Source: Jimgerdemannia flammicorona
Taxonomy: Eukaryota
Direction: 5' to 3'
DNA: 37,124 nt
Assembly: GCA_003990765.1 (NCBI GenBank)
Contig: RBNJ01000195.1
Span: 1 to 37,124 of the forward strand
A model generated the notes under the pieces. That model was not told the DNA's origin and did no database searches. It saw only the letters and a list, made by a program, of their open reading frames with translations. Shown here one piece after another: positions 1 through 29,369 of this stretch (its first letter is position 1; each line of letters opens with the position of its first letter). The position numbers and the translations under genes were made by a program.

Positions 1-821
1 CACCCTCCCACCACTCTGCTCACATATCTTCATCACTAAACCTCGACGTCTGCCCCCCTGAGGTCCCCAACCCACTCACCATCCAGTCAGCAGATCCCCC
101 ACCAGCTCCTCCCACCTTAACACCTTCTCACGTAACCTCAACCACTGCCCCTCCTCAAATACGAAAAGCCAATGGCCTGCCAATCCCACCCATACTGCTA
201 ATACCCATCCTACAGTGAGCCAACTGTCCCCAACCCCACCCACAAGCCGAGATTTGAAGTCCTCCCAGCGACCCCCCTCCCCCACCCGCCTATGCCCAAT
301 ACCCAATCTATCCCCTATCTCAGCCCAAAATTTCCCCAAGACCTCACACTCCCCCAGCCAATGTTCCGGCATCTGTACATAACCCCCAGCTTGCCCAACA
401 TCATAACACTCCTTGCAGTCAAATTGTCCACCCTCTACTAGATACCCTGAGCAGAAATTCAGCATGACATTCCTCTGCAACATTCTCCACCATACCACCC
501 AGTACTTGGGAGGGAGCCACCTCCGGACCTCAGCACTCCAAGACCAGATGCCTGCCCAGTCCCACTCCTCTCTGATTCCAACTACCTGCCAGCTACTCGG
601 CCAAAGGTCCCGGCCAAGCCCCTGCTGACACTCCACCCCCTCCCCAATATCAAACGCAGCTAGGGGAGTACCCCCCAGGAGCAGACTATCCCAATGCCAC
701 ATATTAGGCCCCCACGCCACCTCCCCCTCGTTACTCTGCCAGCGCAGGCCAATTCGGTGTGCTCTCTCGGCCACTCCCCACCAAAACCCCTTGAACTACA
801 GTCGCCAAACTCCATTCAGCC
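1..821 (-). mobile_element. 5'-truncated L1/Tx1-like LINE fragment (3' part of ORF2), inserted into the Gypsy-A 5' LTR; continues left of the window
   Basis: ORF 76-774(-) contains the C-terminal zinc-binding motif of non-LTR RTs (CKEC...EHWLGEC) and aligns by eye with the LINE ORF2 end at ~36190-36920 (FKGFWW...EGEVAW vs YKGFWW...EGEIPW; PPKYWVVWW). Similarity to the LTR starts abruptly at ~822. Confidence 0.85.
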
Positions 822-1660
822 CCACCAGTTGTTCATATTCCCAGTTGAAGCCGCCGATTCAGGAAGAATCCACGCCATCATTTCCCAGTTAGAGCCTGCT
901 GATTCAGGAAGAATCCACGTCACCTGCCATTTTTGAGTTATCCACTATATTCCCAGTTGAAGCCAAATCTACACTGTCCATCCGGGTTAGTTCCCAGTTA
1001 AGCCACCTTTTTCAAGAAATCCGCCGATTCAAGAGAATCCGTGTCATCTGCTGTTTTCAAGTCATCCACCGTATTTCCAGTTGAAGCCGAATCCATACCA
1101 TCGAAGTTATTTGTCATTCCCAGTGAGCCTGGTACAGAAGAAACCACGCTATATATTCCCAGGGAGCCTGAGTTATTGAATTACCCACTGCCAGTACAAT
1201 TCCCAGTAAGAAGAATCCACGCTATCTTCTATTCCCAAACCGCCGCTTTGGAAAACTCACACCAAATTGAGAAGTCTGCCAAAACTGTCCTGCCAGAAAT
1301 CGCATACTTTTGGAAACCTGTTGTGCTATACAAGATCGTCACACAGAAATCGCATAAGGAGAACTACTAGATTGCCAGACCATCATGCATAAGATCATCG
1401 CGGTACACAAATTCCGCCATTCCCAGTTGACCCAAGAAGGAAACCTGTTCATACATACAAATCGCCACTACACCCAGAGAACCATCCCAATAAGGAAATC
1501 ACTCACAGATATTCAGCTTTGACTATTATACCACTAAACACCAAGGATCTCAGGAATCTTAGAACATTTTGTTGCTTTTTGACAAAGTAACTGGGGGCTC
1601 AAGCCAAACTGTATCAACCCCCAATCTTGTAATTTGCCTCTATTGAGCCGGCACATTACA
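822..1660 (+). repeat. 5' LTR of Gypsy-A (only the 3' ~840 bp in the window)
   Basis: Colinear with 9974-10812; ends ...CACATTACA, differences mostly C/T and G/A transitions. Confidence 0.95.
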
Positions 1661-1662
1661 TT

Positions 1663-1680
1663 TGGGGGCTCAACTGGGAA
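1663..1680 (+). promoter_or_regulatory. Primer-binding site, tRNA-Pro type (TGGGGGCTCAACTGGGAA)
   Basis: 2 nt after the LTR end, begins TGG (complement of CCA); resembles the tRNA-Pro PBS of MLV (TGGGGGCTCGTCCGGGAT). Confidence 0.8.
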
Positions 1681-1888
1681 GATTTCAAAATCGATATGAC
1701 TTTTCAGCTCACAAGAACCCACAGTCAAACTGGATACATTTGATACAACACCAACCTCTGCCACTACAGGAGAACCAGTCATCACTAGCATTTGGACAGG
1801 AAGAGAAGTAATCACCTCAAGACTTGCCAACTACCCAGCATCAGAAGGATCCCAACCAGAAGCAGGAGGCAGTACAGCCTGAAATCCC

Positions 1889-1937
1889 CAACCAGATCAA
1901 CCAGATCAACCAGATCAATCAGATCAACCAGATCAAG
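1889..1937 (+). repeat. 9-bp tandem repeat (CAACCAGAT) x~5, encodes (QPD)n in the gag frame
   Basis: Seen directly: caaccagatcaaccagatcaaccagatcaatcagatcaaccagatcaa. Confidence 0.85.
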
Positions 1938-2254
1938 CAGACAATACAGACAGTCCTGCCAGAGTTTTTGGAGAACTTGTACAAGAACTAGACGAACTTA
2001 TTACCTGGACCCAATATCTTACAGCCAGACAGCATACACCAGTCCCACCCATCTCACCAATAGAACCCCTACCACAACCTCTTGCAGAACCAGAAGTAGC
2101 TCCTATAAGGATACCTAGGCCTACTCCACCCCACCTAAGGACCAGAACACCATCTTCAAGATACCCAAGCACCCTGGTCTCTAGTGACAGTTCAGAAAGT
2201 GAATCAGAATCAGAATCCAAATTCGAATCAGAACCAGAAGAAAGTGACGAAGAA

Positions 2255-3200
2255 ATGGCCACCTCATTGCCAATCTTTGCAGGATACCCAGAGGAAGACC
2301 CCAGAGAATTCCTTGATGAAATTGAAGGAATCGCAGCCTTGAGGAATCTCTCAGACAAAAGGAAAATTGCCATCTACAAAGCTTAGCTCAGAGAACCAGC
2401 CAGGGGGATCTTCCATCAAACAGCAAACAACCCAGATGCAGAACTAGCAAGACAGATACAAGCAGTAGTCTTCTATGAGCTAGAATATCAGACCATGGTC
2501 TACTGGCTCATAGAAAAGTATGCAGGAAATGAAACCTGCCACAAGGCTCAAGAATCCATCATGGGAATGAAGATGAATCTTGGAGAATCACCCAGAGCCT
2601 TCTTCACAAGAATCCAGAAGAGAATGCACTCTGCCAGGTTCAATGCCACCAACCAAGACATCATAGGTCCAATGACCTTCATGAATGGGATTCCTCCAAA
2701 TATTGCCCAGCATGTCCACACCCTAGGCATCAGAAGGTCTGAAGAGCAAGTAGATGCAGCCCAAGGATTCTTTGATGTCAGGCAAGGAACTACCTGGAGT
2801 GACCATGACAAGAAGGAAGATAAAGAAGATATTCTGGTCAAAGCCCTGCAAGGACTCCTTCAAGGACAAGAAAGGTCTGAAGAAAGAAGGCCAGCCAAGG
2901 AAGGAAAGAAGGACAGAAGTGAAATTCAAGACCTCAGCTCCAAGTTAGACTGATTGGTTGGACAGATTGAAAAACTCACCACACGTGAAAATCAGGACTA
3001 CCAAAACAACAGAGGGTACCCACCACAGAGGAGCCAAGGTTATCCATCAAGAGATAACAGGAATTACCAGCAAGAAGAAAGAAGGTACTCTGTCCAAGAC
3101 AGAGCCCAAGTCCAATGCTTCCACTGTGGACAACTCAGACACTATGCTACTGAATGTGACAACAAAAGAAGTGACCGAAGGGACTCAGAACCACCAAACT
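2255..3200 (+). pseudogene. gag: Gypsy-A gag (capsid + CCHC nucleocapsid knuckle)
   Basis: MATSLPIFAGYPEEDPREFLDEIE..., GESPRAFFTRI, FMNGIPP, CFHCGQLRHYATEC; in-frame premature stops; frame continues upstream and downstream. Confidence 0.9.
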
Positions 3201-3769
3201 GAAGGAATGACACTCAGTACAAGAAGACTGAAGCCCATCCTGTTGAAGATTTCGAGGAAGCAAGCAACAGTGAAGACTACAGTGACCTAGACTTATATCC
3301 TACCAAGGTTACTACCTGAAAGACAGTCTACCCAGCAGAGAAAAGAAAGAGACCTGTGGGAAGACCCTCCAGGAACATCAGCAGAAGAATCATCTAAGAA
3401 GAAGATGAAGAACATGAGGAGGAACAAGTTGAAACACCTCCCCGAACCCCTTCACCTTTTATGCCTGAGACAAATGAATTGCTACCAGAAGATGAAGAAA
3501 TGGAACAAGAAGAATGGGAACCTGTTGCTCCAAGGCCTAAGAAAAAGTATACCCCAAAGACCATGCCTAGAGACATTTACAATGAAGCCTGGCAGAAGAT
3601 CCAAGAAGCCAAGATGGAAGTTCCTCTCCTGCAGTTCTTGCAATTAACACCAGCCGGAGTCCAAAACAAATTGCTGAGAACCACCAGGTCTAGCACTGGC
3701 CAAGTTCCAATCCCACAGCAAGAACCAGCTCCCATCCCAGTTCAAGCAGCCAAAAGACATGTCAGCACC

Positions 3770-4140
3770 TACTTACATGGAGATATTGGAGGACAAAAAG
3801 CGAAAATCCTCATAGATATAGGAGCAGCTGTCTGTGTCATTGCCAAATGATTCCTGGACATGCTCCAATGGCCCATTGATGGACCATCCAACCTCAGCAT
3901 CATAGTAGCAGATGGAGCCCAAACTCAACCTCTTGGAGAAGTACAAAATATCACCATCTCCCTTGGACACATTCAGTTCTCCATCCCCAAAGCTATTGTT
4001 ACCAAAGCTGTCACCTATGACATGATTCTTGGTACCAACTGGATGAAGGAAATGAATGCAGTTGTTGATATTGGCCAACAAGTACTCAAGTTTGACTACC
4101 GAGGCAAGAAGTATAGAGTTAAGGTGACCAGCTATGAGCA
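3770..4140 (+). pseudogene. Gypsy-A aspartic protease
   Basis: ILIDIGAAVCVI (DTG mutated ACA>ATA), ADG, YDMILGTNW; same frame as gag. Confidence 0.9.
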
Positions 4141-5439
4141 ATCAAAGAAGAAGAAGAAGGTCACTATTCAAGAAGAATATGCCAGCAGTGAGGAGTCTAC
4201 TACAGAAGAGGAAGAAGAATCCGAAGATGGAAATGATCCCAGACTCAATCCACGAATTAACCTGGTGGATGACAGACCAGAAGACAATGTGTGGGCCAAG
4301 AACACTATTCCTATTACCATTGGAGCCATTGCAGGAGAAGCCAAAGGATGCCCTATATGCCTCAAGAGACATAAGTGTCTCGAGCACTCCTCCAAGATCA
4401 TGGGAAAAAGGAAATCACCTGGTGCAGCTGGCCCAGAATGCAGAAGAAAGAAGAAGAAATACAGACATGTTCCAGAAATACCTGCGACCAAAGCTGCAGA
4501 AGTACAAGCAATTTGGGGTCAAGAATCATCTGAGGAAGAAGAAACTTCTGACCAAGAAGTTCCTGAACAAGAAGTACCTAATGAAGAAGAAGTCCCTGAA
4601 CTCATCCCCTGGGATGACCTTGGTGGACACCACCTGAAGACAATGACCCCTGGAATACAGAGGAAGGACCCAGCACTATTACCATTATCCCTAAGAAAGA
4701 AACCCACCAAGAGAAAGCTTTCTGGCTAGGAAGATGTCCACATCAAATGATCTTTCACTCTCCCCGAGACTACTGCTATCAGTGTCATCTATTGGATCAA
4801 CAAGAAAGACAGAGACCCCAGAGACCAGAACCTCCAACTACTCTTGCACAGTCTACCACCTTCCAAGAAGTCACCACAAGGTTACAAAGTCGATTTAGAG
4901 GACAAGGCTTCTTTACCCGAACAGAAATATACTCCTTGTCTACCCTTCTGCCAACCTATGATCAAGATGGGTACCAATTCCCAAGACAACAAGAGATAAA
5001 TAGCAGGGAATATCATTTCCAAGCAATGGGATATTGCAACTATGGGAGACATCCTGATTGCCAAGACTACAGACACCAGAAGATTCACCTCAGCCATGAT
5101 GTTACAGTGCACACCTTGAAGAAAGGAGATAACCGAAGTCAGATCCGAAAAAGCCAGATTCGAAAAAGCCAGACCAAGAAGCCCGGAAAAAGAATCCTCA
5201 AGATCTACGATTTGGGAGAGGACATCCTAGCTCTCATCAGACATATAACCCGCCAAGGATGGGCAGAAGATGCCACCAACTTCATGGAAGCCCTTGACCC
5301 TACAGGAAGAAGGGGAATCAATTACCTCTGAGACCCCTCTACTGGAGCCAGATGGCCACACCTCAACCTTAGAGCTTGGAGGCTTTCCGCCAGTGGAGCT
5401 TCAGCCTTAGGAAAGCCTGAACTCAGCAAGGACATTGCC

Positions 5440-5850
5440 CTGTATGCCCTGCTGCACCCCAAGGCCAAACCCCCGACCAAAGCCCACCCAGAGGATGTAG
5501 GATATGATCTTCACAGCCTGGAGGATGAATCTATCAAGCCTGGAAAAACCTTCATGGTCAGAACTGGATTAGCCATGCAGCCACCTCAAGGAGCTTATAT
5601 TCAACTGACCTCAAGGTCCGGACTTGCCAGACAAGGGATAACTGTAGAAGGAGGAACCATTGACCCTGGATATACAGGCAAAATCAAGGTCATCCTACAC
5701 AATAGCAGTGCAGAATGGCACCAAATCATTAGAGGACAGAAGATTGCCCAAGCAGTCTTCATGAAAGTCAAGACTCCACAGTTACAGGAAGTCTCTGAAC
5801 TAACTGAAGGAACAAGACAAGCTAAGGTATTTGGAAGTTCAGACAGAAAA
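5440..5850 (+). pseudogene. dut: Gypsy-A dUTPase domain (between PR and RT)
   Basis: All five trimeric dUTPase motifs: GYDL, RSGLA, GTIDPGYTG, GQKIAQ, RQAKVFGSS (RQAEGFGSS in copy 2). Confidence 0.93.
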
Positions 5851-6251
5851 GAGGTACATCTCCTTCAAGTCAACTATCTCAAGAGGAATGTTCTCCAGCA
5901 AGTATACCACCAACCAGTCAGACTGCACAAAAATCTCATCCTGGAGCCTGGAGAACAAACCACCTTCAAAATCTTTGCACCACCCAACCCCAGGAACCTT
6001 TTCTTTGAACCCAAGGAAGATATCCCACACCTGGATATAGAGGGATACACATTCCCTGACAAGATGAACCCAGTACACTCCCAAGCAACCAACCAAAGTT
6101 GGGAGATGATCATCCTGCCAAAAGGAACCATCATAGGACATCTGGTCCCCTTTCTCAACCAAACTCATAGGGAAGTTTATGAACTAAACCTATCAGGAAA
6201 TGGCAAAAGGTCTCAGAAGAAAGAAAAGGCCCCTCTGCGACCCAGGAGACA

Positions 6252-7667
6252 GTGAAGCCTTCCACCAACATTGGAGAAGAATTGACACCTCAACAACAGC
6301 AACAATTAGTAGAACTTCTCAACAAATATCAAGATATCTTCACCACCGATTATGGCAACCTACCATACAATCCATCATATCACCACAGCATAAATATAGG
6401 AAGTACAACACCCATCCAGCAGAAATCCTATAGAATACCCCATCACTTGAAAACATTCGAAAAGGAGCACATCCAAGAACTCTTAGATAATGGAGTCATC
6501 CGACCCTCTACCAGCCCCTGGGCCAGCCCTATACTTATTGTACCAAAGAAAGGAGGATGGAGACTCTGCGTGGATTACAGAAAACTCAACTCAGTCACTG
6601 AAAAGGATGCTTATCCTTTACCCAGAATCGATGATCTTTTGGACTAGTTACAAGATGCCAGATACTTCAGCAGTATGGACCTCTTCACAGGATTCCATGA
6701 AATCCCCATGGACCCCAAGGACATTCAAAAGACAGCCTTCCTTGCTTTAGGAAAACTGTTTGAATACCTCCAAATGCCCTTTGGACTCTGTAATACACCC
6801 CCCACCTTCCAGAGGATGATGAATTCGGTCTATGCCCCCTTGATCCACCACTGTCTGATTGTATATATAGACAATTCCAATATTTATTCAGCAAATTTCG
6901 AAGAACACCTGCACCACCTAGAGGAATTCTTCAAGCTCACCCACAAGAATCACTTGAGGTTGAATGCAAAGAAATGCTACTTTGGAAAACAGAAACTCAA
7001 ATTCCTTAGATTCATGGTCTCAAAAGAAGGAACTCATGCAGACCCAAAGAAAACTGAGAAGATCAACAATTGGCCAGTACCCAAGACTCTGAAGGAAACA
7101 CTATCATTCCTGATGCTAGTATCCTACTACAGAAGGTTCATCAAGGATTTTGCCCAAATTGCTGCCCCAATCCAAATCCTTCTCAAGAAAGGAGTACCAT
7201 TCAAATGGACAGAATCACAGGAAAAAGCCTTCAGAGAACTCAAGAACCATATGACTACAGCACTAATCCTTGTGCGCCCCAATCTACAGAAGCCATTCAT
7301 CTTGTATACAGATGCTTCCAAAGATGGCCTAGGAGCAGTTCTAGCTCAAGAAGGACCTGACCAACAGTACCATGTGATAGCTTATACAAGCAGAGCCACC
7401 AACCAGCAGCAGATGAACTATGGTAGCACCAAACTGGAATGCCTTGCAGTCATATGGGTGGTCACCCTGTTCAAGTATTACCTCATCAGAAAAAGATCTA
7501 CCCTGATCACAGACCATGCAGCCCTCAAATGGTTATTCAACCACAAGGAACCTGCTGGAATTCTAGCCTGCTGGATCCTTATCCTTCAGGATTACAAAAT
7601 CACCATCATTCACAAAGCAGGGAAAGCCCACAACAATGTTGATGTACTTTCCCACCAGCCCCAATAA
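6252..7667 (+). pseudogene. pol: Gypsy-A reverse transcriptase-RNase H ORF
   Basis: [34 protein letters not shown] (YIDD decayed), YTDAS, LECLAV, TDHAAL; one premature TAG at ~6645. Confidence 0.96.
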
Positions 7668-8740
7668 ATCAGATGAGGGGTGTCTCGAGGAACCACACTC
7701 TAAAGAAAGCTCCTCAGACTATCAAAGCACAAGAAGATCTCATTCGAAAAGAACATCAGAAAGCCTACCAAGGACAGACAAGCATAGAAGACAGGATTCG
7801 AAAACAATATCAACATTGGCCCCACCTCAGAACTCAAGTTCGAGACATTATTCAGAAATGTGACATCTGCCAGAAGTACCAAGGAAAGAAGAACTATCAA
7901 GCCCCTCTGCAACCGATTCCCCCACCCACTCACATCTTTCAAAGATAGGGAGTAGATGTAATTGGACCTCTACTAGTTACATCAAGAAGAAACAAATACA
8001 TTCTTGTATTTGTAGAACATCTGACCAAGTGGCCTGAGGCTTTCCCAATGGAAATCGCAGATGCCTTAACCATTGTAGGCCTCCTCCATGGACTCATACT
8101 CAGATATGGACCTTCAGAAGAACTCATCTCTGACTGAGGCACAGAATTCATCAATAACATAATCACAAGTTATGCCTGAATTCACAAGATCCACCTCAAA
8201 AGGACCACATCATACCACCCCCAGACCAATGGCATGACAGAAAGAATGAACCAGACCATCAAGAAAGGACTTGCCCGAGTCAACCCTATTAATTGGGACC
8301 TCTGCTTACCTGAGATCCTATGGGAAATTCGGAATACCCCTGCCACATCCACCAAACAAAAGCCATTTGAAATGATGTTTGCCAAGAAAACCAGAACTGC
8401 TGACTACGAGAATCTCGGAGACCTCCTCAAGAAGGCAGAACAGTTATGAAATCAAGCCCAAAGACAGATTATCAAAGCCCAGGAAAGACAAAAGAAGTAC
8501 TATAACCAAAAACAGAAGGATCAGGAGATCAAGATTGGAGATCAAGTCCTAGTTTAGAGAAGTATGATCGAGACAAACTTTGCCGCCAAACTGGAACCGA
8601 AATGGGAAGGACCTTATCTTGTACACAACATCAGAGGAACCAGCATCTATTTAAGAAGTATGAATGGACAAACCCTGAGGACACCAGTACACATCAATCG
8701 CCTCAAGATATACTTCTCACACCATGAACCAGAGAATTGA
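7664..8740 (+). pseudogene. Gypsy-A integrase ORF (separate frame from RT-RH)
   Basis: HHCC finger (EHQKAY...CDICQ), GVDVIGPL, LISD*GTEF, YHPQTNGMTERMN, GPY/F module KWEGPY; several C>T stops. Confidence 0.93.
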
Positions 8741-9239
8741 CAACCGCCTTCAAACTCTTGTCCTCAGTTCCCTCCAAGCCCTACCAGTTCCCTTGCCTCA
8801 GTTCCAGGAACCCAATGGAACCTATCTTCAGAAGATCCAAGTTCATCAAGAGAACCTCACTTTGGCCAAGAGGCTACTCCAGGTCCACTAGCTGTAAGCA
8901 TATTATGCAATTGGAGAACAATTGCAGAATCTCCCTCTCCCAGACCTAACCTATGTCCGAAAAAATACCACTGGCCTAAACAGAAGGAATACTACTGCCG
9001 CAGACAGACTATATACAATCTATAAACGAAATCCTTCTGCCTTAATCCAGGCCCAGTTTTCCCTGAATGACCTCCAAAGGATGACACAGCCCACCTATCT
9101 CAGCATTATTCATCAAGTAGAGATCCTATTTCCTGAGGAAGAAGAAGAGCCCCTGGAATGGAGTGACCACAGCTCAGATGATGATGATGGAACAGGTATA
9201 GATGCAGAAGCTGCTTATGCCTATTGGGATGATGACTGA
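8724..9239 (+). pseudogene. Extra ORF of unknown function downstream of integrase (~171 codons, two C>T-type stops)
   Basis: ATG at 8724 in frame with ORF 8922-9239; MNQRIDNRLQ...AYYAIGEQL...AADRLYTIY...acidic tail YWDDD*; homologous reading frame in copy 2 (~19646-20150). Confidence 0.75.
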
Positions 9240-9266
9240 AGAATAGTCTGGGACAGACTACCCTTC

Positions 9267-9278
9267 AGTGGGGGCTGA
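9267..9278 (+). promoter_or_regulatory. Polypurine tract of Gypsy-A
   Basis: AGTGGGGGCTGA immediately before TGTAAC; AGTGGGAGCTGA in copy 2. Confidence 0.75.
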
Positions 9279-9440
9279 TGTAACAGACCAAAACGTACTA
9301 CCCAAATTATAACTTAGCCAGATAACATGAACAATTAGCATACTTACTCAGCATGATGTGACTTCCAGTATATCATAGTTACTCATGTCTGTCACACTTA
9401 TAATTAGCCAAGACACCAGATCAGGATTGTTTACCTGTAT

Positions 9441-9529
9441 CCTGCAGACACACTCATGTCCTGCGGACACACTCATGTCCAGCGGACACACTCATGTCCT
9501 GTGGACACACTCATGTCCTGCGGACACAC
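9441..9529 (+). repeat. 19-bp tandem repeat in U3 (CCTGCGGACACACTCATGT x~4.7)
   Basis: Seen directly; contains dyad GGACA-N6-TGTCC. Confidence 0.9.
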
Positions 9530-9611
9530 CTGTACCTAGAGGACACACCCAAACATTACCAAAGATAGCAAATCTATAGTTAGCCACATAGTAACCAGAT
9601 AGCAACCAACT

Positions 9612-9645
9612 TATATAAATTACTCCAGAGGCGAGAGTGAATAAA
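9612..9645 (+). promoter_or_regulatory. Putative LTR TATA box (TATATAAA, 9612) and AATAAA (9640)
   Basis: Motifs downstream of the U3 repeats; both retained in the copy-2 LTR (~19314-19347, minus). Confidence 0.5.
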
Positions 9646-11269
9646 ACCTCAGTCTGAAATACAAATACCAAAGAAGCCTCTAAAGATTGAGCATTGGTCC
9701 CCTTTCCACTCCGGTCCACTTTCTGATACAAAGATTGATTGGTTCGCTTGCCAGATAAGTCTGAAGATTTGTTGCCTAAGTTCAAGGAGAACTTCGCCAC
9801 CTTTTGAGTAATCCGCCACTTAAGGAATAAGCCACCATTTTTAAGTTATCTGCATTCCCAGAGAAAGCCGCCTTGCCCAAGCCAGTTGCCGATGCAACTT
9901 CGCAGTGATCTGTTCACGTAAACGAAGCCAGTCTTTGACATAACTTTGCCAAGAGACTCTTTCTCAAAGAACGCCGCCAGTTGTTCGTATTCTCAGTTGA
10001 AGCCGCCGATTCAGGAAGAATCTGCGCTATTGTTTCCCAGTTAGAGCCTGTTGATTCAGAAAGAATCTGCATCACCCGCCATTTTTGAGTTATCTACTGT
10101 ATTCCCAGTTGAAGCCAAATCCGCGCTGTCCATCTGAGTTAGTTCCCAGTTAAGCTGCCTTTTTCAAGAAATCCACCGATTCAGGAGAATCCACATCATC
10201 TGCCATTTTCAAGTCATCCGCCATATTCCCAGTTGAAGCTGAATCCGTGCCATCGAAGTTATTCATCATTCCCAGTGAGCCCGGTACAGAAGAAACCATG
10301 CCATATATTCCCAGGGAGCCTGAGTTATTGAATTACCTGCTGCCAGTATAATTCCCAGTAAGAATAATCCATGCTATTTTCTATTCCCAAACCACTGCTT
10401 TGGAAAACCCGCACCAAATCGAGAAGTCCGCCAAAACCATCCCACCAGAAATTGCATACTTTTGGAAACCTGTCATACTATACAAGATCGTCACACAGAA
10501 ATCGCATAAGGAGAACCACTAGATTGCCAGACCGTCACGCATAAGATTGTCATGCTACACAAATTCTGCCATTCCCAGTTGACCCAAGAAGGAAACCCGT
10601 TCATACATACAAATCGCCGCTACACCCAGAGAACTGTCCCAATAAGGAAATCGCTTGCAGATCTCCAGCTTTGACTATTATACCACTAAACACCAAGGAT
10701 CTCAGGAATCTTAGAACATTTTGTTGCTTTTTGACAAAGTAACTGGGGGCTCAAGTCAAACTACATCAACCCCCAATCTTGTAATTTGCCTCTATTGAGC
10801 CAGCATGTTACACTACATATATATTATATAGATATACAAATATATATATGCAAATACATATATACAAACATACAAATATATATTAATAGATCAGTCTTTA
10901 ATAGTTTATAGTACCAATGATACTTCAAGTTAAATATTCTCAATAGTTCCATACTTTTTATATAATTCTTATTCTGAAATCTGACAATATTATACTAAGA
11001 CTAGAGATAATATTATTTGTAATTATTATAGATAAAAAATTAAAAAAAAAAAGATATATTTATGATACAACTGATACCTTTGTTTGATATATATATAATA
11101 TTATTCTACCAATCTCTTATACTATATAGCTAGAAGTTCAAAATACTTAGTGATTTAATTTTGAACATATATTAATATATAAAAGACAAATACTCTATCA
11201 AAATTAAAAAGAATATAGATATAAATAAAATCAATATCCAAACTATAGTGGGTATTTATCTGATTGCCT

Positions 11270-13500
11270 GACTATTTCTATATCAATAATCTCATTTAAT
11301 CAATAATATTTAGTTATATTCTTTAGCAAAATTTCAAAATTGAATTATTTGCTGAATTATATATATAGACTAACTATTCATAACCATTAAGAGTGATCAA
11401 TTGCAGAGTATCTTTGATATTCTCAAGCATGATTTATATCTGCCAAGTACTGATATTATTTATAAAGATATTCTGGAGGCCTATAGGAAAGAGCTTGATA
11501 ATCTTTACCAGATACTTCAGATAAAATAAATAAATAAGGACTATACTATGACCATTATAAACTAAATTATATATATATATATATATATAAAGAGCTCATC
11601 AATTTAATCTCACATTCAATAAATAGAATTTAGTAGGTAGAATTTTATTTATAATTAATATATAGATATCTCTCAATGTAATTATACTTCTAAACATTAT
11701 CAGTTATTAGATTGACCTTAATTGGTAACTTAAATCTCTTACTCTTGACTTTATCAAACTTGCTGGTCTTTATTCTAGAAAGAACATTATAGATATTTTT
11801 ATTAGTTGTATCTAAGAGCTTGAGATTACAGTTAAGATAAAAAGAGAGGACTTGTCATTAGATTGGTATTTTGAGAGAAGTTATAAAACAAACCAAATTT
11901 TAATGATTATTTATTTTCACATAAATTTATCAATAGAATATGTTAAATACAGATTTTGACTATTATAATAGATAATATCTCAAACAACTCAGCATTTTTT
12001 TCGAATTTTAGTAACCAGTCTTAAACAGGAAAATGTAATCTTAGGTATAAAAAACTACTGTATATATTATCAGGCCCATATACTAAACCTTGCTATTCAG
12101 GATTATCTTATATATATATATATAGACAAAATATCCAAAAGTGGAGAAATCCTGAGTATTGTTTTCAAGTTATATAAACTGGTTACATTGGTTCAATCAT
12201 CTCTACAATGATAAGACAAATTCACTGCACAGTATAGAACAATCAGTTTAATCCCAAAAGAGCTGATATTAGATATCTATATATATTGGAACTCAACAAT
12301 TGCAATGACCCAGCATATACTAGAGTTTGCTATGATATGTACTCTTTTTTTTGATTGGCTGAAGCAAATTATTTTAGATGACTGAGGGTTGTTAATTAAT
12401 TACAAAACGAATTTTTTTTAAAATAAAAAAAAAAAGCTGATAGATTCAATAGTTACTAGAAATATAGAGTGAGGCTATAGATGAAAGTAAGTAGGATATA
12501 CTAAGAAATGTTATTAGAGTTTTAGAAGTAAATAATAATTACTTTAGCTCTATATTTGTTTTGCCTGCCTCTATATAGTAATGTAACAATTCACCATTTT
12601 TAACTATCAGTATTTGATAATTATATATAGAATATAGTTAAAAAAACCACTCTAACAATAAGCTCTACAATACTGGTATATAATCTTTTGATTGATTGAC
12701 TAAGAGGATAAGCTTAAGAATAGACTAGAGAGTAGTAGTAATTTTCAGTTTAGCCCAGATCAGAGAGATACTGTAGAGGTTGATCTGAGCAAGCTTAGAA
12801 ATACTACTCCAAAACAGATACCACTATATACTCAATCAGTATAAATATTTTAGTTTAGTAGTTAGTTCTTCCAAAAAAAGAGAAATCTCTACAAAACTCA
12901 CTCTCTTTTCTCAGAACAGTATTGGATCTATACTTAAAGCTACAAATTATAAAGATCAGAGCTGAGAGGAGTACTACATTAAGGAGACCAAATAAGTTAT
13001 AATCAAAATATACTAAATAAACTATATACTATTATAAGATTCTGACTAAAGTCCAGATGAATATGCTGAAGGATCTCTTTTATTATATATTTACTTTAGC
13101 AGAAAGAGAAAAAGAGAGCCATCAGTAGAAGAACTGCTATCAATAGACAAACTCACTATTTACCTCACTAGTAATTATATAATCTTGCTAGAGAGTATAT
13201 AGATGCTCAACAGATAGAAGATAGATTGTCTTCCTATAGATAGTTGATAGGGTTGAGCCAATTTTAACTATCATTTTAACCACCATTCTACTCTCTGGGG
13301 CATATAGTCACAGATGTATCAAACAGACTTCCCCAGCCTATATGGTATAGCTTAGAATTATCTAGCCATTCTTACTACTAGTACTTCAGTTAAGTAGATA
13401 TTCTCTAATAAAGATAAATCTTATTTTCCTAAGAGATATATACTGAATACTAAGGTAATCTGGGCTTACATATTCCTAAAGTCTTGGTTGAGCATGGGCT
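11270..13500 (+). pseudogene. Degenerate hAT transposase, copy 1 (intron-containing)
   Basis: Decayed motifs in order: LPSTDII, GLYSRKNI (H-S/T-G-xNI), IIIDNISNN, QAHILNLAIQ, LDIYIYWNST (DVxTRWNST), LDL/P, FPSL..A*NYLAILTTSTSVK*IFS (hAT dimerisation domain). Confidence 0.85.
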
Positions 13501-13835
13501 GCTAAAATTGGACAAGTTCTGTAGTATTAAATAAATAAATAAATAAATAAAAATAAAAATAAAAGTTCAGCCCAGGATATAAGGTGGTAGACAAGAGAGT
13601 ATACCAGAGTTTGAAGTCTCTCACCAGCTGCAGAGGGCTATCTTGAGTAGCCTGAATAGAGCCAGAGGATAGTGAAGTTGATGGAGAGAGTGTATAAAAT
13701 TTGCAGTCCTCCATCAGTAGCAAGGAGCAATCCCAAGCTATCAGTTGGTGAGAAAGTCCAAATTGGAGAGAGCATGCAGAATTTGTAGCCCAATGACCCA
13801 CAGCAAGAAGTAACTTCAAATAGTCAGAATCTAGC

Positions 13836-13910
13836 ATAGATTAAACTTTAGTATAGATTAGACTCTTGGTATATATTGGACTCTAATATAGATTTGGACC
13901 CTACAGATAT
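13836..13910. repeat. Imperfect 17-18 bp tandem repeat x4 (TATAGATTGGACTCT..), possible hAT subterminal repeats
   Basis: catagattaaactttag tatagattagactcttgg tatatattggactctaa tatagatttggaccctac; lies 3' of the transposase. Confidence 0.45.
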
Positions 13911-16029
13911 CTTGGCTCTGTACTATAGCACTATATCAGCAGTACTATAGAGTAAAAGTTAAGAGACCAGTTGAGCCTAGTAAAAAGCTAAACTAGTACT
14001 ATAAAAAGAGACCTGACTGCCTGCCTAACCTTTATAAAAGACTGCCTAACTCTCACAAAACTGCTCCACCCACTGGTCTCAGGTCTTAATAAGTCTATTA
14101 TCCATTGTAAATATGATAACTATAGTGTTTGAGCTCTCCTTGAAGGTGACAGTACTATGGAGATTGTGTGCTTAGAATAAAATAGCTATATTGACTATAA
14201 ATAGAACATCAAAACTATAAGTAAGATTATACCAGATACTACTACTGTTCTCTCAAGTTGGGCTCTTTCTTTCTAAAATATAAAATATTACTAAAGTGAC
14301 ATTGTTATCTATATGTGTAGGTAGAAAAATATTATACCTAATGTACTCTGATGTAATATAAGCATATAGTTGGGTAAACTCTTGGCCTAGGACTTTATAT
14401 TACCAGACAATATTGGAGAATACCTAACCTTCATCAAGCTCTAAGAGCCCTGGCTTAGAAATCTATAAAATAGACAGTATCTAGCCAAATCTTATCTTTT
14501 CACATACAGAGAACAGAAACTCTCAAGTTATATAAAAAAAAAAGTCAAGTCCTCTCACCTTATACAGTATACTAAATTGTGCCAAGAATGTATATATAGT
14601 CATACTAAGAGTACAGAATCTTATATATTCTTAGAAATTTAACAAGTATAGATTAGTAAAGAAAATCTTGAAAGAGAGAAGATAAATGTGGAGAATTTCA
14701 GGAAAACTCCAGAGAACCCACCCTTTGCCAATATTGCAGTATACCTAATTCCCATTCAAACCCTCCCCTTCTTGCTTTTTATATCTCTTATTTCTTACCA
14801 CTTAGTATTTTATACAATCCTCATAGTTGATAGCAATAAAGCTTATTACTATAGAGATTTCTTATTACCATTACAACTATCTCTCCATGATCATTAATAA
14901 TGATATAGTTCTCTTTGTCATTATATACTCCAGCAGACCAATAGGCTTCTTGATTGAGGATAATTGGCTCTGATTTGAATATAAATCTCAAGTCTTAATA
15001 GTAATACTGATATTGCTTATACTGAATAACTTGCTATTAAACTTCTCTATTTGATCAGATATTAGATATAATCAAACTTGAGTAACTTTAAACTCTTCTC
15101 TACAGTAGAACTGAGTCTTGATCTGAGTAGTGAGCTGAGTTAAGTATATAGATAGATTATATATGAATATTATATAGGAATTTTTAGAGAAGAATATATA
15201 AAAATAAAGTTAAATAAAATATAGAGTAAGTATTCAGAAAAGAGTATGAGAAAGAGTTACATATAGATAAGTTGCAAGATTGCTCATGAAGACTTTCTTC
15301 TGATCCTTTTGAGATCTCTATCATATGATATATTGACTCAACAGCTCAGCCACTAAAGATATACCTCATAATGTTCTCTAGTCTTTCTTCAACTTAATCA
15401 GATATTGTTAATAAAGTTGGCAGATCTCACTATAGAGCTGTAGACCCTAAGAAAAAGAGAAAGTATGAAATAAATTTGATCATGCTATTGTAGTAGCAAA
15501 ATGTAATCTATATCTACTATTAGCTATTCTAAAAAGGCTACTGTATATATAGCTGTGAGATCTATGAATTCCAAGATCCAAAGGATTGCTATAAGTTATT
15601 GCTAGAATTCTCTCATCTTTGTCATTACTATTACCATTACTACTGCCACTTTGGCTCTCAATGAGAAGCTTGTATACTATCTATATGAAAAGAATTTAAC
15701 ATTATTAGTAGAGAGTACTTTTCTATCTTAAATATTCTCTCTTTTAATAATTATGAAATAGATAAAAAAAATGAGTAGACCAATATACAATTAAGGACTG
15801 CTATTTATTTGTTTATAATATAGCAAGAGAAATAAAAAGAAGTATTAGAGAACAAAGAAAGGGTAATGTTACTAAAGATTTTAAATAATCCAGATCAGTC
15901 TGGATCAATCTGGATCAGATTATAGGACCAATATAAATTAATTTGAATCCATCACATGATGAATCTAAATTGAATCTCATCTGGATAAATTGTATTCATT
16001 TAGAATACTATTTGAAATAAATTATAGAT

Positions 16030-17450
16030 ACTAGCTATTATAATAGATAATACTACAAATAATACTATATTTTTCCACAGTTTGATAATAAAGCTTTATT
16101 TAGAGAATATGACCTTTAATGCTAAAAATAGCTATATATGATATCAGACCCATATTATGAACCTTACTATATAGGAGTATCTCATATTTATTAATTATAA
16201 TAAATTACTTAAAGATATAATTACCAAGTTATGAAAATTGATTAGATTGATTAAATCTTCACTATAGTATTGAGATAAGTTTGCTATATAGTATAAAGTA
16301 AATAATGTAAAACTGAAAGAATTAGTGCTGGATATCTATATATAGTAGAATTTAAATGATATAATGATTAAATAAGTATTAGAACTAATAATTATAAGTT
16401 TTTGAAAATTACTAATATGTATTATATATTTAACTGATATATATTGACTTACTTACTCAACTATAGATCAAGTCAATAGATTTCATAGTTGCTACTGATA
16501 AAGAACTAAGAGATGATGTGATTAAAGAAGATAAATGAAAAATATTAAGAGAAATTGTATAAATCTTAAAGATAGATATTAGGTTGATAAGTATTGCTCA
16601 GCTTATATCTATAGATATTTAAAGACTATATCAGGACCATGGTCTGCCAGCTATACTCAATAATGAGTACTATAATTCTAGTCTATAACTATCTAATAGA
16701 CCAATTTGAAGACAGGATGGATAAATTATCTAAAGATCAGAAAGATACTATAAAAAATATTATACAAAAACAGACAACCTTGTTTACTTAGTCAGTATAG
16801 ATGAGTCTTTTTTTTAAAGTATCTCAGCTAAAATAAAAAATATAATAGTAGCATAGTAGAAACTTACTACTTTTTTTTTCATTTTCTCTACAGTACTTGA
16901 CCCATGTTTGAAGCTGCAGTATTATAAATAATATAGATAGGAATAATATTACATTAGAGAGACTGAGTAGACTATTGCAGATATATATCAAAAATACTAT
17001 ATATTTCTACTAGATTTGGATTAATAGTAAGATAGCTGTATTAGTAATTCTCTAATATTACATATTTATGATAAAAAAAGAAAGAGAGATACCTAATAGA
17101 TGAGCTCATAGTATATCTGTCCAGTGAATGAGCTATCTTATAAATAGACTCAGAATTATTAGAGTTGTAAAAGATATGCTCAGTCCAAATTTATATCAGT
17201 CTTTTGTATATTTTACTTATCAAATATTTTGATAAACTCAAATTACTGTTTCTGGAGCAAAGGCACACCAGTCAGACTATCTAAACTTATACTATATAAT
17301 ATGAGATTATCTGGCTATTTCTGCTATAAGTACTCTAGTCAAAAGGGTATTTTCCAGTAGTAAAATCCTTATTTTACCAAAAAGATATATACTGGGAGGG
17401 GTGATAATTTGAGCTTATATATGTCTAATATCTTAGTAGAATAGTAGAGG
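16030..17450 (+). pseudogene. Degenerate hAT transposase, copy 2 (5' part missing)
   Basis: IIIDNTTNN, QTHIMNL, ELVLDIYI**N, LDPCLKLQYY, DYLAISAISTLVKRVFSS; same motif order and intron positions as copy 1. Confidence 0.83.
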
Positions 17451-19075: not shown

Positions 19076-19605
19076 TCAAAAACAGCAGACTTCTCAAAAA
19101 TAGCAGCTCTTCCTTAAGCAGCAGATTTTATATAAATGGTGACTTATTCTTTAAGTAGTGGATTTCTCTTTAATTCTTTACTCAAACTTTAGTAGTAAAA
19201 TACTTAGATTCTTCAGACTTATTTGGCAAGTGTACTAATTAATCTTTATATCAGAAAGTGGACCAGAGTAGAAAGAGAATACTGTTACTTTATATTTAAT
19301 TTCAGACTGAGGTTTATTTACTCTTATTTCTGGGGTATTTTATATAAGTTAGTTGCTACCCAGTTGCTATGTAGCTAATTATAGAAGGCTATTTATGACA
19401 GGTGTTTTTGGTTTTATATAAGTGTTCAGGTCTTATACAAGTGTTCAGATCCTATACAGATACTCTTTCTAGTATATCTGGCTAATTATATAAGTTGTCA
19501 TGACAAAGTAGTCCTAGCTATCCAGATATGTTTGGCTGTCTTTTTATATATCTATTATAATATACAGTTATAGTGTTTTTAGTACAATTTCTGCTGCTTA
19601 TTACA
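17868..19605 (-). repeat. 3' LTR of Gypsy-A copy 2, interrupted by LINE fragment
   Basis: Starts TGTAAT at 19605; ends matching ...TCTATTGAGC..TGTTA(C/T)A at ~17868. Confidence 0.85.
18530..19070 (+). mobile_element. 5'-truncated LINE 3' end with (TAA)n tail and 15-bp TSD
   Basis: Matches ~36623-37124; TSD ATAACT(T/C)AAAAACAG at 18515-18529 and 19071-19085. Confidence 0.92.
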
Positions 19606-22600
19606 TCAGCTCCCACTAAAAGATAGTCTGCCCCCAGACTGTCCTTTAGTCATCATTCCAATATGCATAAGTATCTTCAGTATTAATATCTGAAACATTA
19701 TCCTCATTAGTATCTGAGTCACTCTACTCTATGAGTTCTTCTTCTTTCTCTGGGAATAGGATTCAATATGGTTGATAATACTAAGATAGGTGGCTAGATT
19801 CATCTCTTGTATATCATACAGAGAGAACTATGCATATATCAATACTGTAATATTTTGTTTATAGATAGTATATAGTCTGTCAGCAGTAGTGGTATTTCTT
19901 TATATCAGATCTGTAGTATTCCTGATATAGGTCTGTTCTGAAGCTGGGAGGTTTTATAACTATTCACCAATTGCATAGTAGGCCTATAGCTAGTGGACTT
20001 GTAAGAGACATCTAGCTAAGGTGAGATTCTCTTAATGAATCTGAATTCACTAGAGAGAGTTTCTATTGGCTAGGCAGAATTGGGGTAGGGGAATTGAAAG
20101 TGACTGGAATGAACTGAGGATAAGAGTCTGGAGATACTAGTTAATCCTCTGATTTGAGGTGATTGATATATACTAGTGTCTTTAGGGTTCATCTATCCAG
20201 ACTTCTTAAATAGATACTTGTTTCTCTGATATTATATATAAGGTAAGATCCTTTCCATTTGGGCTTCAGTTTGGTGACAAAGTTTGTTTTGATCATACTT
20301 CTCCAAACTGTACTTGATCTCCAATCTTGAGCTTCTGATCTTTCTACTTCTGATCATAGTACTTCTTTTGCCTTTCTTGAGTCTTGATAATTTGAACTCA
20401 GGCTTGATTACATAATTGTTCTGCCTTCTTAAGAAGGCCTCTGAGGTTCTTATGATCAGTAGTTTTAGTTCTCTTAGTAAACATTATTTCAAAGAACTTT
20501 TGTTTGGTAGAGACTGTAGGAGTGTTCTGAATTTCCCATAGGATCTCAGGTAAGTAGAGGTCCTAGTTGGTTGGGTTGACTCAGATAAGTTCTTTCTTGA
20601 TAGTCTGGTTCATTCTTTCTATTATACTATTGGTCTGAAGATTATATGATAGGTCTATTTGAGATAGATCTTATAGATTCAGATATAACTTATGATTATA
20701 TTATTGATGAATTCTGAGTCTTGGTCAGAGATAAGTTCTTTTAGGTGTCCATATCTGAGTGTAAGTCTATGGAGAAGACTTACAATGGTCAAGACATCTG
20801 TAATTTTCATTGGGAAAGTCTTGGGCCACTTGGTCAGATATTCTACAAATACAAGGATATACTTATTTCTTCTTAGTATAAATAGTAGAGGTCCAATTAT
20901 ATCTACTCTCCATCTCTGAAAGATGTTATCTAGTGGTATGATTAGTTGTAGTGGTGCTTGGTAGTTCTTTCTTCCTTGATACTTCTGGCAGGTGTTATAT
21001 TTCTTAAGTATGTTCTGGACTTATATTCTGAGATTGGGCCAATATTAGTATATTTTTCACAGCTTTTCTACTATATTCACTTATCCTTGATAAGCTTTCT
21101 GATATTCTTTTCAAATGAGATCTTCTTATTCCTTAATGGTCTGGAGAACTTCTTTTAGGGTATAGTTCCTTAGTATATCCTTCTTCTAATTCATTGGAGT
21201 TGGTGGGAAAGTATATTAACAATATTATAAGCTTTCTTTACTTTATAGATAATGGTGATTTTATAATCCTAGAGGATAAGAATCCAGTGGGCTAGGATTC
21301 TAGTAGGTTTTTTATAGTTGAATAGCTATTTGAGGGCTACATGATCAGTTATCAGAGTAAATCTTTTTCAAATAAGGTAATGCTTGAACAGAGTGACTGT
21401 CTATATGATTGTAAGATATTCCAATTTAGTGCTACCATAGTTCATCTGCTGCTGATTAGTAGCTTAGCTTGTATAAGCTATCATATAGTATTGTTAGTCA
21501 GGTCCTTCTTGGGCTAGAACTGCTCCCTGGTTATCTTTGAAGGCATCTGTATATAAGATGAATGGCTTCTGTAGATTGGGGCAGACAAGAATTGGTGCTG
21601 TGATCATGCAGTACTTGAGTTTCTTGAAGATTAGTTCTTGTAATTCCATCTATTTATAAGGTACTTCTTTCTTGAGAAGAGTTCAAATTGGGGAAGTGAT
21701 TTGGGTAAAGTCCTTGATAAATCTTCTATAGTAGGACACTAGTATCAGGAATGATAGTATTTTCTTTAGGGTCTTGGGTACTGGCCAATTGTTGATCTTC
21801 TTGATTTTTTTTAGATCTATATGAGTTCCTTTTTTTGAAACTATGAATTTAAGAAATTTAAGTTTCTGTTTCTCAAAGTAGCATTTCTTGGCATTGAGTC
21901 TCAAGTAGTTCTTATAGGTAAGCTTGAAGAATTCCTCTAGATAATATAGGTGTTCCTCAAAATTTACTGAATAGATATTGGAATTATCTATGTATACAAT
22001 TAGACAGTAGTGGATCAGAGGGGTATAGACTAAATTTATCATTTTCTAGAAGATGGGAGGTATATTGCAGAGTCCAAAGAGCATTCAGAGATATTCAAAT
22101 AGTTTTCCTAGAGTAAGAAAGGCTGTCTTCTGAATGTCTTTTAGGTCCATGGGGATTTTATAAAATCCTGCAAAAAGGTCCATACTGCTGAAGTAACTGG
22201 CATCTTGTAACTGATTCAAAAGGTTACCAATTCTGAACAAGAATAGGCATCCTTTTCAGTTACTGAATTGAGTTTTTTATAGTCTACACAGAGTCCCAAT
22301 CCTCCTTTCTTTGGTACAATAAGTATAGGGCTGGCCCAAGGACTGGTAGAGGGTTAGATGACTCTATTGTCCAAAAGTTTCTGAATGTACTCCTTTTCAA
22401 ATATCTTTAAGTGATGGAGTATTCTATTGGATCTCTGCTAGATGGGTGTTATATTTCCTATATTTATACTGTGATGGTATGATGGATTGTATAGTAGGTT
22501 GCTATAATTAGTAGTAAAGATATCTTGATATTTGTTGAGGAGTTCTACTAGTTGTTGCTATTACTGGGGTATCAATTCTTCTCTAATGTTAGTGAAAGGC

Positions 22601-28901: not shown

Positions 28902-29369
28902 TATAATGGTTCTAGTTTCTTTAGGAGAAAGTAGATAAATCTGAAAGTTCTAGTTAGCCTAAAGTAGTTCAAAGAGATACTTAAAGGTTCAAGTATTCTT
29001 GAAGGATTTCTGGGAGAAAATATTCTGAGCTTTATTTAGATAGAGAATAAGGATATTTATATATGATCTGAAAGAAAGATCTGGAAGGATCTTAGAAAGA
29101 AAGAGAAATACCAAGAAATAGGTTTTCAGCAAAGCTGACTAATACTATTCTACAATGTTCTGAAAGGTTCCATGACTAGCTAAGACAAGATACTTGGTAT
29201 TAAGGAAAGACAAGAATATTCTAGTGGTGTCTGGACACTGAGAGAAGGTTTCTAAGCAAGTAGAAGGTGACAGAACATACATAGTAGAATGTTCATAAAA
29301 TGACAAAAAAAGACTAACTAAAAGATACAAAAATATACTAAGACTAAATATAACTATGAAATTGTTACA
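28902..29369 (-). repeat. 3' LTR of Gypsy-B
   Basis: Direct repeat of 34551-35014; preceded on minus by PPT AAGGAGGGAGAGA (29370-29382). Confidence 0.95.

Follow-up and report, generated by a model that had tools for sequence, protein, structure and literature searches.

The stretch analysed here (the window) is contig RBNJ01000195.1 of Jimgerdemannia flammicorona, 37,124 nucleotides (nt) in length. It contains two copies of a Ty3/Gypsy long terminal repeat (LTR) retrotransposon, copy 1 at 822-10812 on the forward strand and copy 2 at 19601-23923 on the reverse strand, and the analysis concerns the division of the coding region of this element into open reading frames (ORFs). In copy 1, gag, protease (PR) and dUTPase are placed in ORF1, reverse transcriptase (RT) and RNase H (RH) in ORF2 and integrase (IN) in ORF3, and ORF4 follows. 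Our reading is that the dUTPase|RT break and the RH|IN break probably both predate the family, that the RH|IN break marks a whole Gypsy branch, and that the integrase would be initiated separately; the three parts are put forward jointly and are tied to no single mechanism.

The two copies and their reading frames

By its LTRs, domain order and RT phylogeny, the element is a member of Gypsy (Metaviridae). Long terminal direct repeats flank the coding region of copy 1, and Pfam finds PR, RT, RNase H and IN in that order, with a dUTPase match (E 6.8e-27) followed by RVT_1, RNase H and Integrase_H2C2. The RT-RH sequence groups with Gypsy pol proteins. What was not found is the usual single PR-RT-RH-IN polyprotein: RT-RH and IN are separate ORFs here and across a branch of 54 rows in the RT-RH tree presented below. 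Table 1 gives the coordinates of the features.

Table 1. Features of the two element copies, in window coordinates.
Feature	Position	Strand	Basis or remark
5' LTR, copy 1	822-1660	+	839-nt ungapped match to 9974-10812, 89.9% identity
3' LTR, copy 1	9974-10812	+	LTR pair comparison
ORF1, copy 1: gag, PR, long linker, dUTPase, basic C-terminal tail	1883-6255	+	ORF list and Pfam
CCHC knuckle in ORF1	about 3116-3157	+	
PR D-I-G motif in ORF1	about 3815-3823	+	
dUTPase in ORF1	5464-5841	+	
Junction 1, GTGA	6252-6255	+	ORF1 stop TGA at 6253-6255; conserved RT-frame coding (KPSTNIG...) begins here
ORF2, copy 1: RT-RH	6183-7667	+	Pfam RVT_1 and RT_RNaseH
Hairpin GGGAAAG...CUUUCCC	7620-7653	+	ends 10 nt upstream of junction 2 (7664)
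Junction 2, ATAA (ATGA in copy 2)	7664-7667	+	RT-RH stop overlaps first IN codon
ORF3, copy 1: IN, H2C2 finger and core	7664-8740	+	Pfam; start codon altered to ATA
ORF4, copy 1: acidic C-terminus, no assigned function	8724-9239	+	two in-frame stops
Copy 2, 5'-truncated	19601-23923	-	79% identity to copy 1 4923-9283; GTGA at 22605-22602, ATGA at 21194-21191

The gag-PR-dUTPase, RT-RH and IN parts lie in three frames, each -1 to the preceding one, in both copies. At junction 1 of copy 1, the dUTPase frame (1 mod 3, 5332-6255) ends in a TGA that overlaps a GTG at 6252-6254; the open stretch of the RT frame (0 mod 3) begins at 6183, 72 nt before the ORF1 stop. At junction 2, the TAA that ends RT-RH (7665-7667) overlaps an ATA at 7664-7666. 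The open stretch of the IN frame (2 mod 3) begins at 7643, 24 nt upstream of that stop, and ends with TGA at 8738-8740. An earlier interpretation made from the letters of the window (the sequence-only reading) had described a split pol with GTGA and ATAA/ATGA overlaps in both copies, and all of its coordinates hold. It had also assigned the same frames and spacing to copy 2. The junctions agree with this; the spacing does not, since the distance from junction to junction is 1412 nt in copy 1 versus 1411 nt in copy 2, and the frames of copy 2 are broken inside RT and IN. Similarly, the start of ORF4 17 nt before the end of IN is correct for copy 1, where the ATG at 8724 (frame 0) precedes the IN stop (8738-8740), but not for copy 2, where a 21-nt deletion (8706-8726, copy 1 numbering) has removed the ATG. 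It should be remembered that any TGA stop has an NTG in the -1 frame, so that an NTGA overlap is automatic and only N = A or G is informative (about 1 in 4 each).

Both copies are dead, with many stops and private indels. In copy 1, gag and protease are read in frame 2 up to 4729, and the reading is continued in frame 1 from 4618 through the dUTPase. This frame change at 4617 is private to copy 1, which has lost one base there. For comparison with other copies, contigs of 4 sequencing runs were aligned over 2900-9400 and indels were judged among the matches listed; the contigs of 3 of the 4 runs have an extra base (C) after 4617, by which gag-PR-dUTPase becomes one frame, and none of the indels listed falls at either junction. 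In-frame stops also interrupt copy 1: one in RT (6645-6647), five in IN and more in gag. The alignment of copy 1 with copy 2 contains 9 indels, 0 of them at a junction. The internal frame breaks of copy 2 come from private 1-nt deletions in RT (6617) and IN (8207 and 8550, copy 1 numbering). When compared with copy 1, copy 2 shows 304 C>T and 239 G>A changes, while the reverse changes number 94 (T>C) and 91 (A>G); CpA/TpG contexts are favoured, and the commonest change is CpA>TpA (156 of the 304 C>T). The decay of copy 2 is a strong one-directional transition mutation that resembles repeat-induced point mutation, in a genome that has the look of an early-diverging fungus. The G+C content of copy 1 (window 1-11000) is about 45% compared with 25-33% in the surrounding non-element DNA (11000-17000), a composition foreign to the host background.

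The break between RNase H and integrase in relatives

RT-RH relatives were collected by searching the protein database with RT-RH and then with the RT N-terminus among longer proteins; 239 were examined and 227 aligned. The RT N-terminus search returned mostly generic Gypsy pols and was the source of the fused forms for the tree and of proteins P0411, P0431 and P0446. Of the 227 aligned relatives, 134 extend as far as the ADxLSR motif, which closes RNase H. Beyond it, 46 of the 134 stop at most 15 residues from the window stop; a tail of 16-99 residues is present in 26, and the other 62 continue for at least 100 residues. The picture is sharper for the nearest relatives. All five that reach the motif in the group above 55% identity (P0001 79%, P0002 63%, P0003 62%, P0004 56%, P0056 55%) stop at most 2 residues from the window codon, and Rhizopus RT-RH proteins, at about 45% identity, likewise stop at this codon or within 2 residues of it.

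In a FastTree tree of 103 RT-RH rows, the window falls within a branch of 31 split rows plus P0435 with local support 99, and the split/continuous label requires 6 changes on the tree, compared with a mean of 29.8 when shuffled; a count as low as 6 is reached in 0 of 500 shuffles. The same branch, with 30 split rows and P0435, is obtained from IQ-TREE in its quick mode (SH-aLRT 98). With partial rows added (151 rows in total), the branch consists of 54 rows, of which 42 are split, with RT-RH stopping no more than 15 residues from ADxLSR, 8 have tails of 18-84 amino acids (aa) and 4 have tails of 186-271 aa. Its membership covers Rhizopus, other presumably early-diverging fungal elements and soil metagenome contigs. 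The rows that fall outside it comprise 72 fused or continuous forms and 7 scattered split rows; among the latter, P0395 is nearly identical to a continuous form and is hence a decayed copy.

No fused RH-IN form is shown in the 54-row branch. Pfam was run on 7 of the 12 tailed rows, namely the four long tails, P0052 and P0047 (two of the three tails of 39-84 aa) and P0437, and neither rve nor Integrase_H2C2 is present in any of these 7. The other five tails are 18-20 residues long, too short for an integrase domain (P0065, with 20 aa, is unscanned). P0435 (1267 aa) and P0437 (1140 aa), although complete as gag-PR-RT-RH frames, lack IN. As a separate observation, the 271-residue tail that follows RNase H in P0118 has a weak NUDIX match at residues 221-280 (E 0.0011, below the Pfam cut-off), and such tails in this branch may hold captured domains.

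The start of the integrase was studied in the same way. A search with the window IN frame, in which stops were read as X, gave 88 relatives. Stand-alone IN ORFs account for 25 of the 88; they are 370-453 aa long and start with M-x-x-[EDQHR]-[LIMFYE]-[YHLK]... (for example MNPELYYGL). In all 25 the Met lies at one fixed offset from the motif, at pairwise identities of 38-98% (median 47%), which argues against its being merely the first Met of a longer open frame, whose position would vary. P0122 (83% identity, 354 aa, no internal stop) has its Met aligned to codon 7664-7666 (ATA in copy 1, ATG in copy 2), and the RT-RH of P0001 ends in ...MTQ with its stop one base past the position of the IN start codon. 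The derivation of the ATAA of copy 1 from ATGA, proposed in the sequence-only reading, agrees with all three: the ATGA of copy 2, the Met of P0122 and the end of P0001.

DNA of relatives was obtained from a metagenome scan with the RT-RH alignment, and among the 80 loci listed the identity is at most 44%. The majority are Gypsy pols of the ordinary fused kind or decayed copies, and the branch members recovered among them are L001 and L031 only. L001 is intact, with gag (>972 aa), PR-RT-RH (688 aa, in the -1 frame behind T TTA AAA) and IN (429 aa). Its RT-RH is separated from IN by two stops of the IN frame, TAG and TAA, and 30 nt lie between the first of them and the ATG of MDIQLYEAI... In L031, RT-RH is followed by a 74-nt A+T-rich spacer with IN-frame stops and then by the ATG of MEFELYIHI... 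Because of the IN-frame stops in these spacers, neither frameshifting nor readthrough can join RT-RH to IN in the two loci. Readthrough was also rejected for junction 2 itself, as the frames differ in the window and L001 has two stops.

A few other features of these loci were recorded. Within the spacer of L031 (1018-1047) there is a mini-ORF of eight sense codons (ATG GCT ... TGA) that overlaps the IN ATG and might bear on how a downstream AUG is reached. The gag of L001 (1-2919) is unusually long; it contains numerous Cys-rich repeats and, ahead of the capsid-like part, a series of PPPI/NNPPP repeats. L029 (3510-6014) and L072 (291-4553) have the integrase match upstream of RT in the same frame, which is a Gmr1-like order.

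The breaks could be explained in another manner, as lesions of a defective master or decay of both copies, in which case an active element would possess one continuous pol. Both copies are clearly dead, and they share an ancestor. However, relatives with identities as low as 38-45% show the same ORF ends and starts, and intact ORFs of 1179, 688 and 429 aa are among them; split RT-RH and free-standing IN occur throughout the 54-row branch, whose tails carry no IN domain where Pfam was run and are otherwise too short for one (the 20-aa tail of P0065 being the unscanned case); and the other copies compared over 2900-9400 have no junction indel among those listed. We regard this explanation as having very little chance of being right, and the refuting condition named in the sequence-only reading, breaks inherited from a defective master with a continuous pol, is contradicted. 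The breaks are better seen as an ancestral, conserved design, in keeping with that reading, and the window family as a branch member whose stop and start have come to share four bases. As to the integrase, with its start codon conserved in the branch and RT-RH ending just before it, we consider it very probable that it is an independent cistron, as had been suggested, which would be initiated at its own AUG and would not be the tail of a Pol polyprotein.

The break between dUTPase and RT, and the routes of expression

Fewer relatives inform the first junction. The ORF1 tail was searched exhaustively without a profile, and the relatives that extend beyond the dUTPase domain itself are three. 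The ORF1 of P0210 (79% identity) ends at the window stop, while those of P0211, an intact 1179-aa gag-PR-dUTPase frame according to Pfam, and P0212 end 21 residues past it; none of the three carries RT. Scans of genome and viral contigs with the ORF1 alignment found only cellular and phage dUTPases. The dUTPase|RT break is likewise old, being represented in three lineages with 35-38% identity in the region, and it is narrower in spread than the RH|IN break. In L001, P0435 and P0437, PR and RT share one frame.

In the window, conservation of the ORF1 frame extends to ...KGKAPL..., and conservation of the RT frame (KPSTNIG...) abuts it within about 15 nt. The tail of P0211 and P0212, LPPTLE...SSHWRK, matches the ORF1-frame reading of the window across its RT-frame coding. 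Since this tail overlies RT-frame coding, the functional switch of frame would be placed, for each of the three lineages, at 6252 or immediately upstream. An Ogre-type intron was considered for junction 1 and rejected: the frames overlap, and the conserved coding on the two sides lies too close together to accommodate one. No ATG occurs in the RT frame over its first 160 or so codons. Some distant RT-RH ORFs (P0010, P0017, P0019, P0422) have their initial Met at, or close to, the conserved 'IG' of the RT N-terminus, which is suggestive but could also be caller bias. The proposal that RT is an independent cistron is thus not borne out: there is the missing ATG, the GTG is near chance, and ORF1 of P0211 and P0212 is 21 codons longer. 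Nor does the idea that the 4-nt overlaps are conserved in relatives survive, with these later ORF1 ends at junction 1 and the 30-nt and 74-nt spacers of L001 and L031 at the RH|IN break.

The part of ORF1 past the dUTPase (window 5900-6160) has a feature of its own. The sequence ...NQSWEMIILPKGTIIGHL... recurs in Rhizopus P0015 and in P0211, between dUTPase or PR and RT. By eye it shows a dUTPase-like beta-strand pattern, and it could be a degenerate second dUTPase-like module.

We then consider the signals at the junctions. A programmed scan of both overlaps in both copies found no in-frame X XXY YYZ heptamer, while the same scan recovered, as a positive control, the T TTA AAA at the gag/pol overlap of L001. 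The absence of a canonical slippery site noted in the sequence-only reading is therefore confirmed. The run TTTCCCA at 7648 was rejected as a slippery site, as it is phased with the IN frame and not with the RT frame. RNA folding at junction 1 gives nothing unusual (z 0.11 upstream; z -0.17 downstream, 6256-6375), and there is no stable structure downstream of junction 2 (7668-7790, z 0.36) with a tool that does not model pseudoknots. Upstream of junction 2, the fold of 7560-7667, which contains the hairpin, has z -2.63, and 1 of 200 shuffles folds as well. The 5' arm of this hairpin is mutated in copy 2, L001 has no counterpart, and it is seen in copy 1 only, itself decayed; its arms encode conserved G-K and L-S residues, so that it may be a coding by-product. 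Inspection by eye for motifs of the TGGGA type shows one at 6100-6104 as the closest to junction 1, some 150 nt before it, and none immediately ahead of junction 2. Pyrimidine-rich runs ending in CAG precede both junctions, CCCCTCTGCGACCCAG at 6230-6245 and CTTTCCCACCAG at 7647-7658. The AG of the second run is AA in copy 2. For ORF4, no Pfam family was found at E <= 0.01, and the best atlas score of 0.85 was to unrelated clusters and below the useful range; the region of its ATG, deleted in copy 2, is present in a loose end of one run (X1).

One way to connect the three frames is by two programmed -1 frameshifts, as in betaretroviruses, which would yield Gag-PR-dUTPase-RT-RH and, in small amount, Gag-...-IN. 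The two downstream frames are each -1 to the one before and are open for 72 nt and 24 nt upstream of the stop, RT-RH has no ATG, PR and dUTPase are in ORF1 as in a betaretroviral pro frame, and L001 demonstrates that canonical -1 slippage is usable in the branch, at gag/pol. On the other hand, the heptamer scan and the downstream folds (z -0.17 and 0.36) gave nothing in the window, and at RH|IN frameshifting is impossible in L001 and L031, where the conserved Met would moreover be needless. A pair of frameshifts is accordingly rated as improbable. Frameshifting is excluded at RH|IN in these two loci; at junction 1, a -1 event by itself is a fair candidate, somewhat short of an even chance.

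Another way is through spliced or otherwise subgenomic mRNAs, in which IN, and perhaps RT-RH and ORF4, would be translated from a shorter RNA with its AUG first, the 4-nt overlap being then a matter of compaction. The IN AUG is kept across the branch, but neither its distance from the RT-RH stop nor its frame with respect to that stop is constant (an overlap in the window, 30 nt and no change of frame in L001, 74 nt in L031), which would suit a mechanism that takes no account of the upstream stop. Splicing onto an AUG-bearing leader would also account for the ATG-less RT frame. The pyrimidine runs ending in CAG before both junctions have the look of a 3' splice site, although this is weak evidence: an AG after a pyrimidine run is common, the AG at junction 2 reads AA in copy 2, L031 has no AG just before the IN ATG, and no donor site was identified, none having been searched for. 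We hold this route to be less likely than not. As for transcripts, the runs that share sampled words with the window (14 listed) are soil and root metagenomes and one coded organism, with a best share of 0.29, and none of the 14 is an RNA run.

The third way is a full polycistron, one genomic mRNA with termination-reinitiation at both 4-nt overlaps, using GUG for RT-RH and AUG for IN. At junction 2 there are several points in favour: ATGA is present in copy 2 and, by inference, in the relatives of 79-83% identity, the residues at which RT-RH ends in close relatives (Q, Q, R, K, Q, V, L) would allow NNA-TGA, and the stable hairpin of copy 1 stands just upstream. The ORF4 ATG near the IN stop would fit as well, and precedents are described in passages of PMC10275272 (SART1 with UAAUG, caliciviruses, and cauliflower mosaic virus (CaMV) with its transactivator). 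Against these, the GTG before TGA is close to chance, the ORF1 of P0211 and P0212 runs 21 codons beyond the start of RT-frame conservation, L001 and L031 carry spacers instead of overlaps, L001 lacks the hairpin, whose arms encode conserved residues and may be a coding by-product, and junction 1 has no structure signal. We judge this model unlikely for the window family. A wider version, by analogy with caulimoviruses, would have the whole branch read its genomic RNA as a true polycistron, with a restart from RT-RH to IN and likewise from ORF1 to RT and from IN to ORF4, ORF4 being possibly its own reinitiation factor; this too we hold to be unlikely.

Returning to separate initiation of IN with the mechanism left free, the coding region is divided by design into ORF1 (gag-PR-dUTPase), ORF2 (RT-RH, -1, no ATG), ORF3 (IN, -1, ATGA overlap) and ORF4, and the integrase would be started at its own AUG as a separate protein. 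For this family, reinitiation by ribosomes that have just finished RT-RH would be the single likeliest route to IN, though we favour it only tentatively, and a spliced or otherwise subgenomic IN mRNA would be nearly as likely. RT-RH may possibly be made as an extension of ORF1 through a non-canonical -1 event; its production by reinitiation at GUG or a near-cognate codon appears less likely and rather doubtful, and by splicing more doubtful again.

Several points weigh against the reading of two old breaks and a separately initiated integrase. The first RT-RH protein search left out proteins longer than 594 aa. The tree is rooted at the midpoint only, and the term 'clade' assumes a root outside the branch. 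ORF callers behind the database always begin at Met, an artefact which is reduced by the fixed Met and by the two long IN-less ORFs and is not removed. The ends and starts of P0001 and P0122 fit an ATGA in that lineage as inferred from separate database proteins, a common contig not being shown. On DNA, the RH|IN geometry is available from three lineages (window, L001 and L031) and is different in each, so that the ATGA overlap is no conserved signal of the branch. At the first junction, dUTPase and RT share one ORF in P0431, P0446 and P0411, the GTG before TGA is expected about one time in four, and there is no known frameshift signal or structure, with every mechanism weakly supported. Finally, an integrase made on its own would have to reach the particle by some route, and none is evident here.

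Elsewhere in the window there is a second pair of direct repeats (28904-29203 and 34553-34852, 94% identity, 5649 nt apart), which look like the LTRs of an unrelated element.

Comparison with known systems

In the standard account, integrase is the C-terminal part of a Gag-Pol or Pol polyprotein in every retrovirus and LTR retrotransposon. This linkage carries integrase into the particle and sets its amount. A monophyletic Gypsy group whose integrase is always free-standing, with a conserved AUG, would break the polyprotein rule, and two questions are raised: how the ribosome reaches an AUG several kilobases into the mRNA, whether by reinitiation, a spliced RNA or internal entry, and how a separately made integrase is recruited to the particle. 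The matter is also practical, as automated gene prediction and transposon classification will rate such elements as degenerate or 'IN-less' despite the existence of intact three-ORF copies such as L001. Judged on sequence, the independent integrase cistron is the well-supported and interesting part of the picture; reinitiation at both overlaps is unproven and, for the RT junction, weakly founded.

Among the systems that can be compared, betaretroviruses have gag, a pro frame with dUTPase, and pol joined by two -1 frameshifts. The element resembles them in its three successive -1 frames and in the placement of protease and dUTPase in a frame upstream of RT. It differs in that the second break is RNase H/IN rather than pro/pol, that there are no slippery heptamers or downstream structures, and that the downstream AUG is conserved. 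Foamy viruses make Pol from its own spliced mRNA, and the plant Ogre elements have an intron between pro and RT. Here also a part of Pol would be expressed independently of, or discontinuously with, the upstream frame; in contrast to Ogre, the frames abut or overlap, with conserved coding up to the junction on both sides.

The closest relatives by content are fungal Ty3/Gypsy elements with a dUTPase. Passages of PMC2864245 report a dUTPase between PR and RT for PosPlaTy3-5, a fungal Gypsy element, and the present element shares with this group its LTRs, CCHC gag, PR-RT-RH-IN order and dUTPase position. It is unlike the fungal elements of that source, where the portions at hand describe single or gag/pol ORF layouts (PMC2864245), in having IN, and here also RT-RH, in its own frame. 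The full-text literature covered, PMC3248453 (on LTR retrotransposons of fungi) among it, gives no account of any Gypsy lineage in which integrase forms a cistron of its own; this scope did not extend to Repbase, to subscription journals or to the supplements of PMC2864245 and PMC3248453, where one might be described.

Reinitiation after long ORFs is described, in the sections of PMC10275272 concerned, for caliciviruses, influenza B and the non-LTR element SART1, and for CaMV with a viral transactivator. With calicivirus VP2, influenza B BM2, the AUGA/UAAUG sites of victoriviruses and hypoviruses, and SART1 (PMC10275272 and PMC2699510, each in part), junction 2 shares an out-of-frame ATGA stop/start, a long upstream ORF and a possible upstream structure. 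The differences are that the overlap is not shared by the wider branch, that no 18S-complementary motif is established (complementarity was not searched), and that the evidence here is of sequence only. If the polycistron reading is true, the element would be the first LTR retrotransposon known in which integrase is delivered as a separately initiated protein, and as far as the literature searched shows, reinitiation here would be the first case in an LTR retrotransposon.

The polycistronic 35S RNA of Caulimoviridae, on which reinitiation depends on a transactivator, offers a further comparison. No homologue of a TAV-like transactivator was found in the element, ORF4 having neither a Pfam family nor an atlas relative, and a novel factor is possible. 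The Caulimoviridae lack integrase and LTRs, unlike the element. They are, however, Gypsy-related and reverse-transcribing, and in the parts of PMC10275272 and PMC5902531 that treat them their consecutive ORFs are separated by short overlaps or spacers, which matches the geometries seen in the branch.

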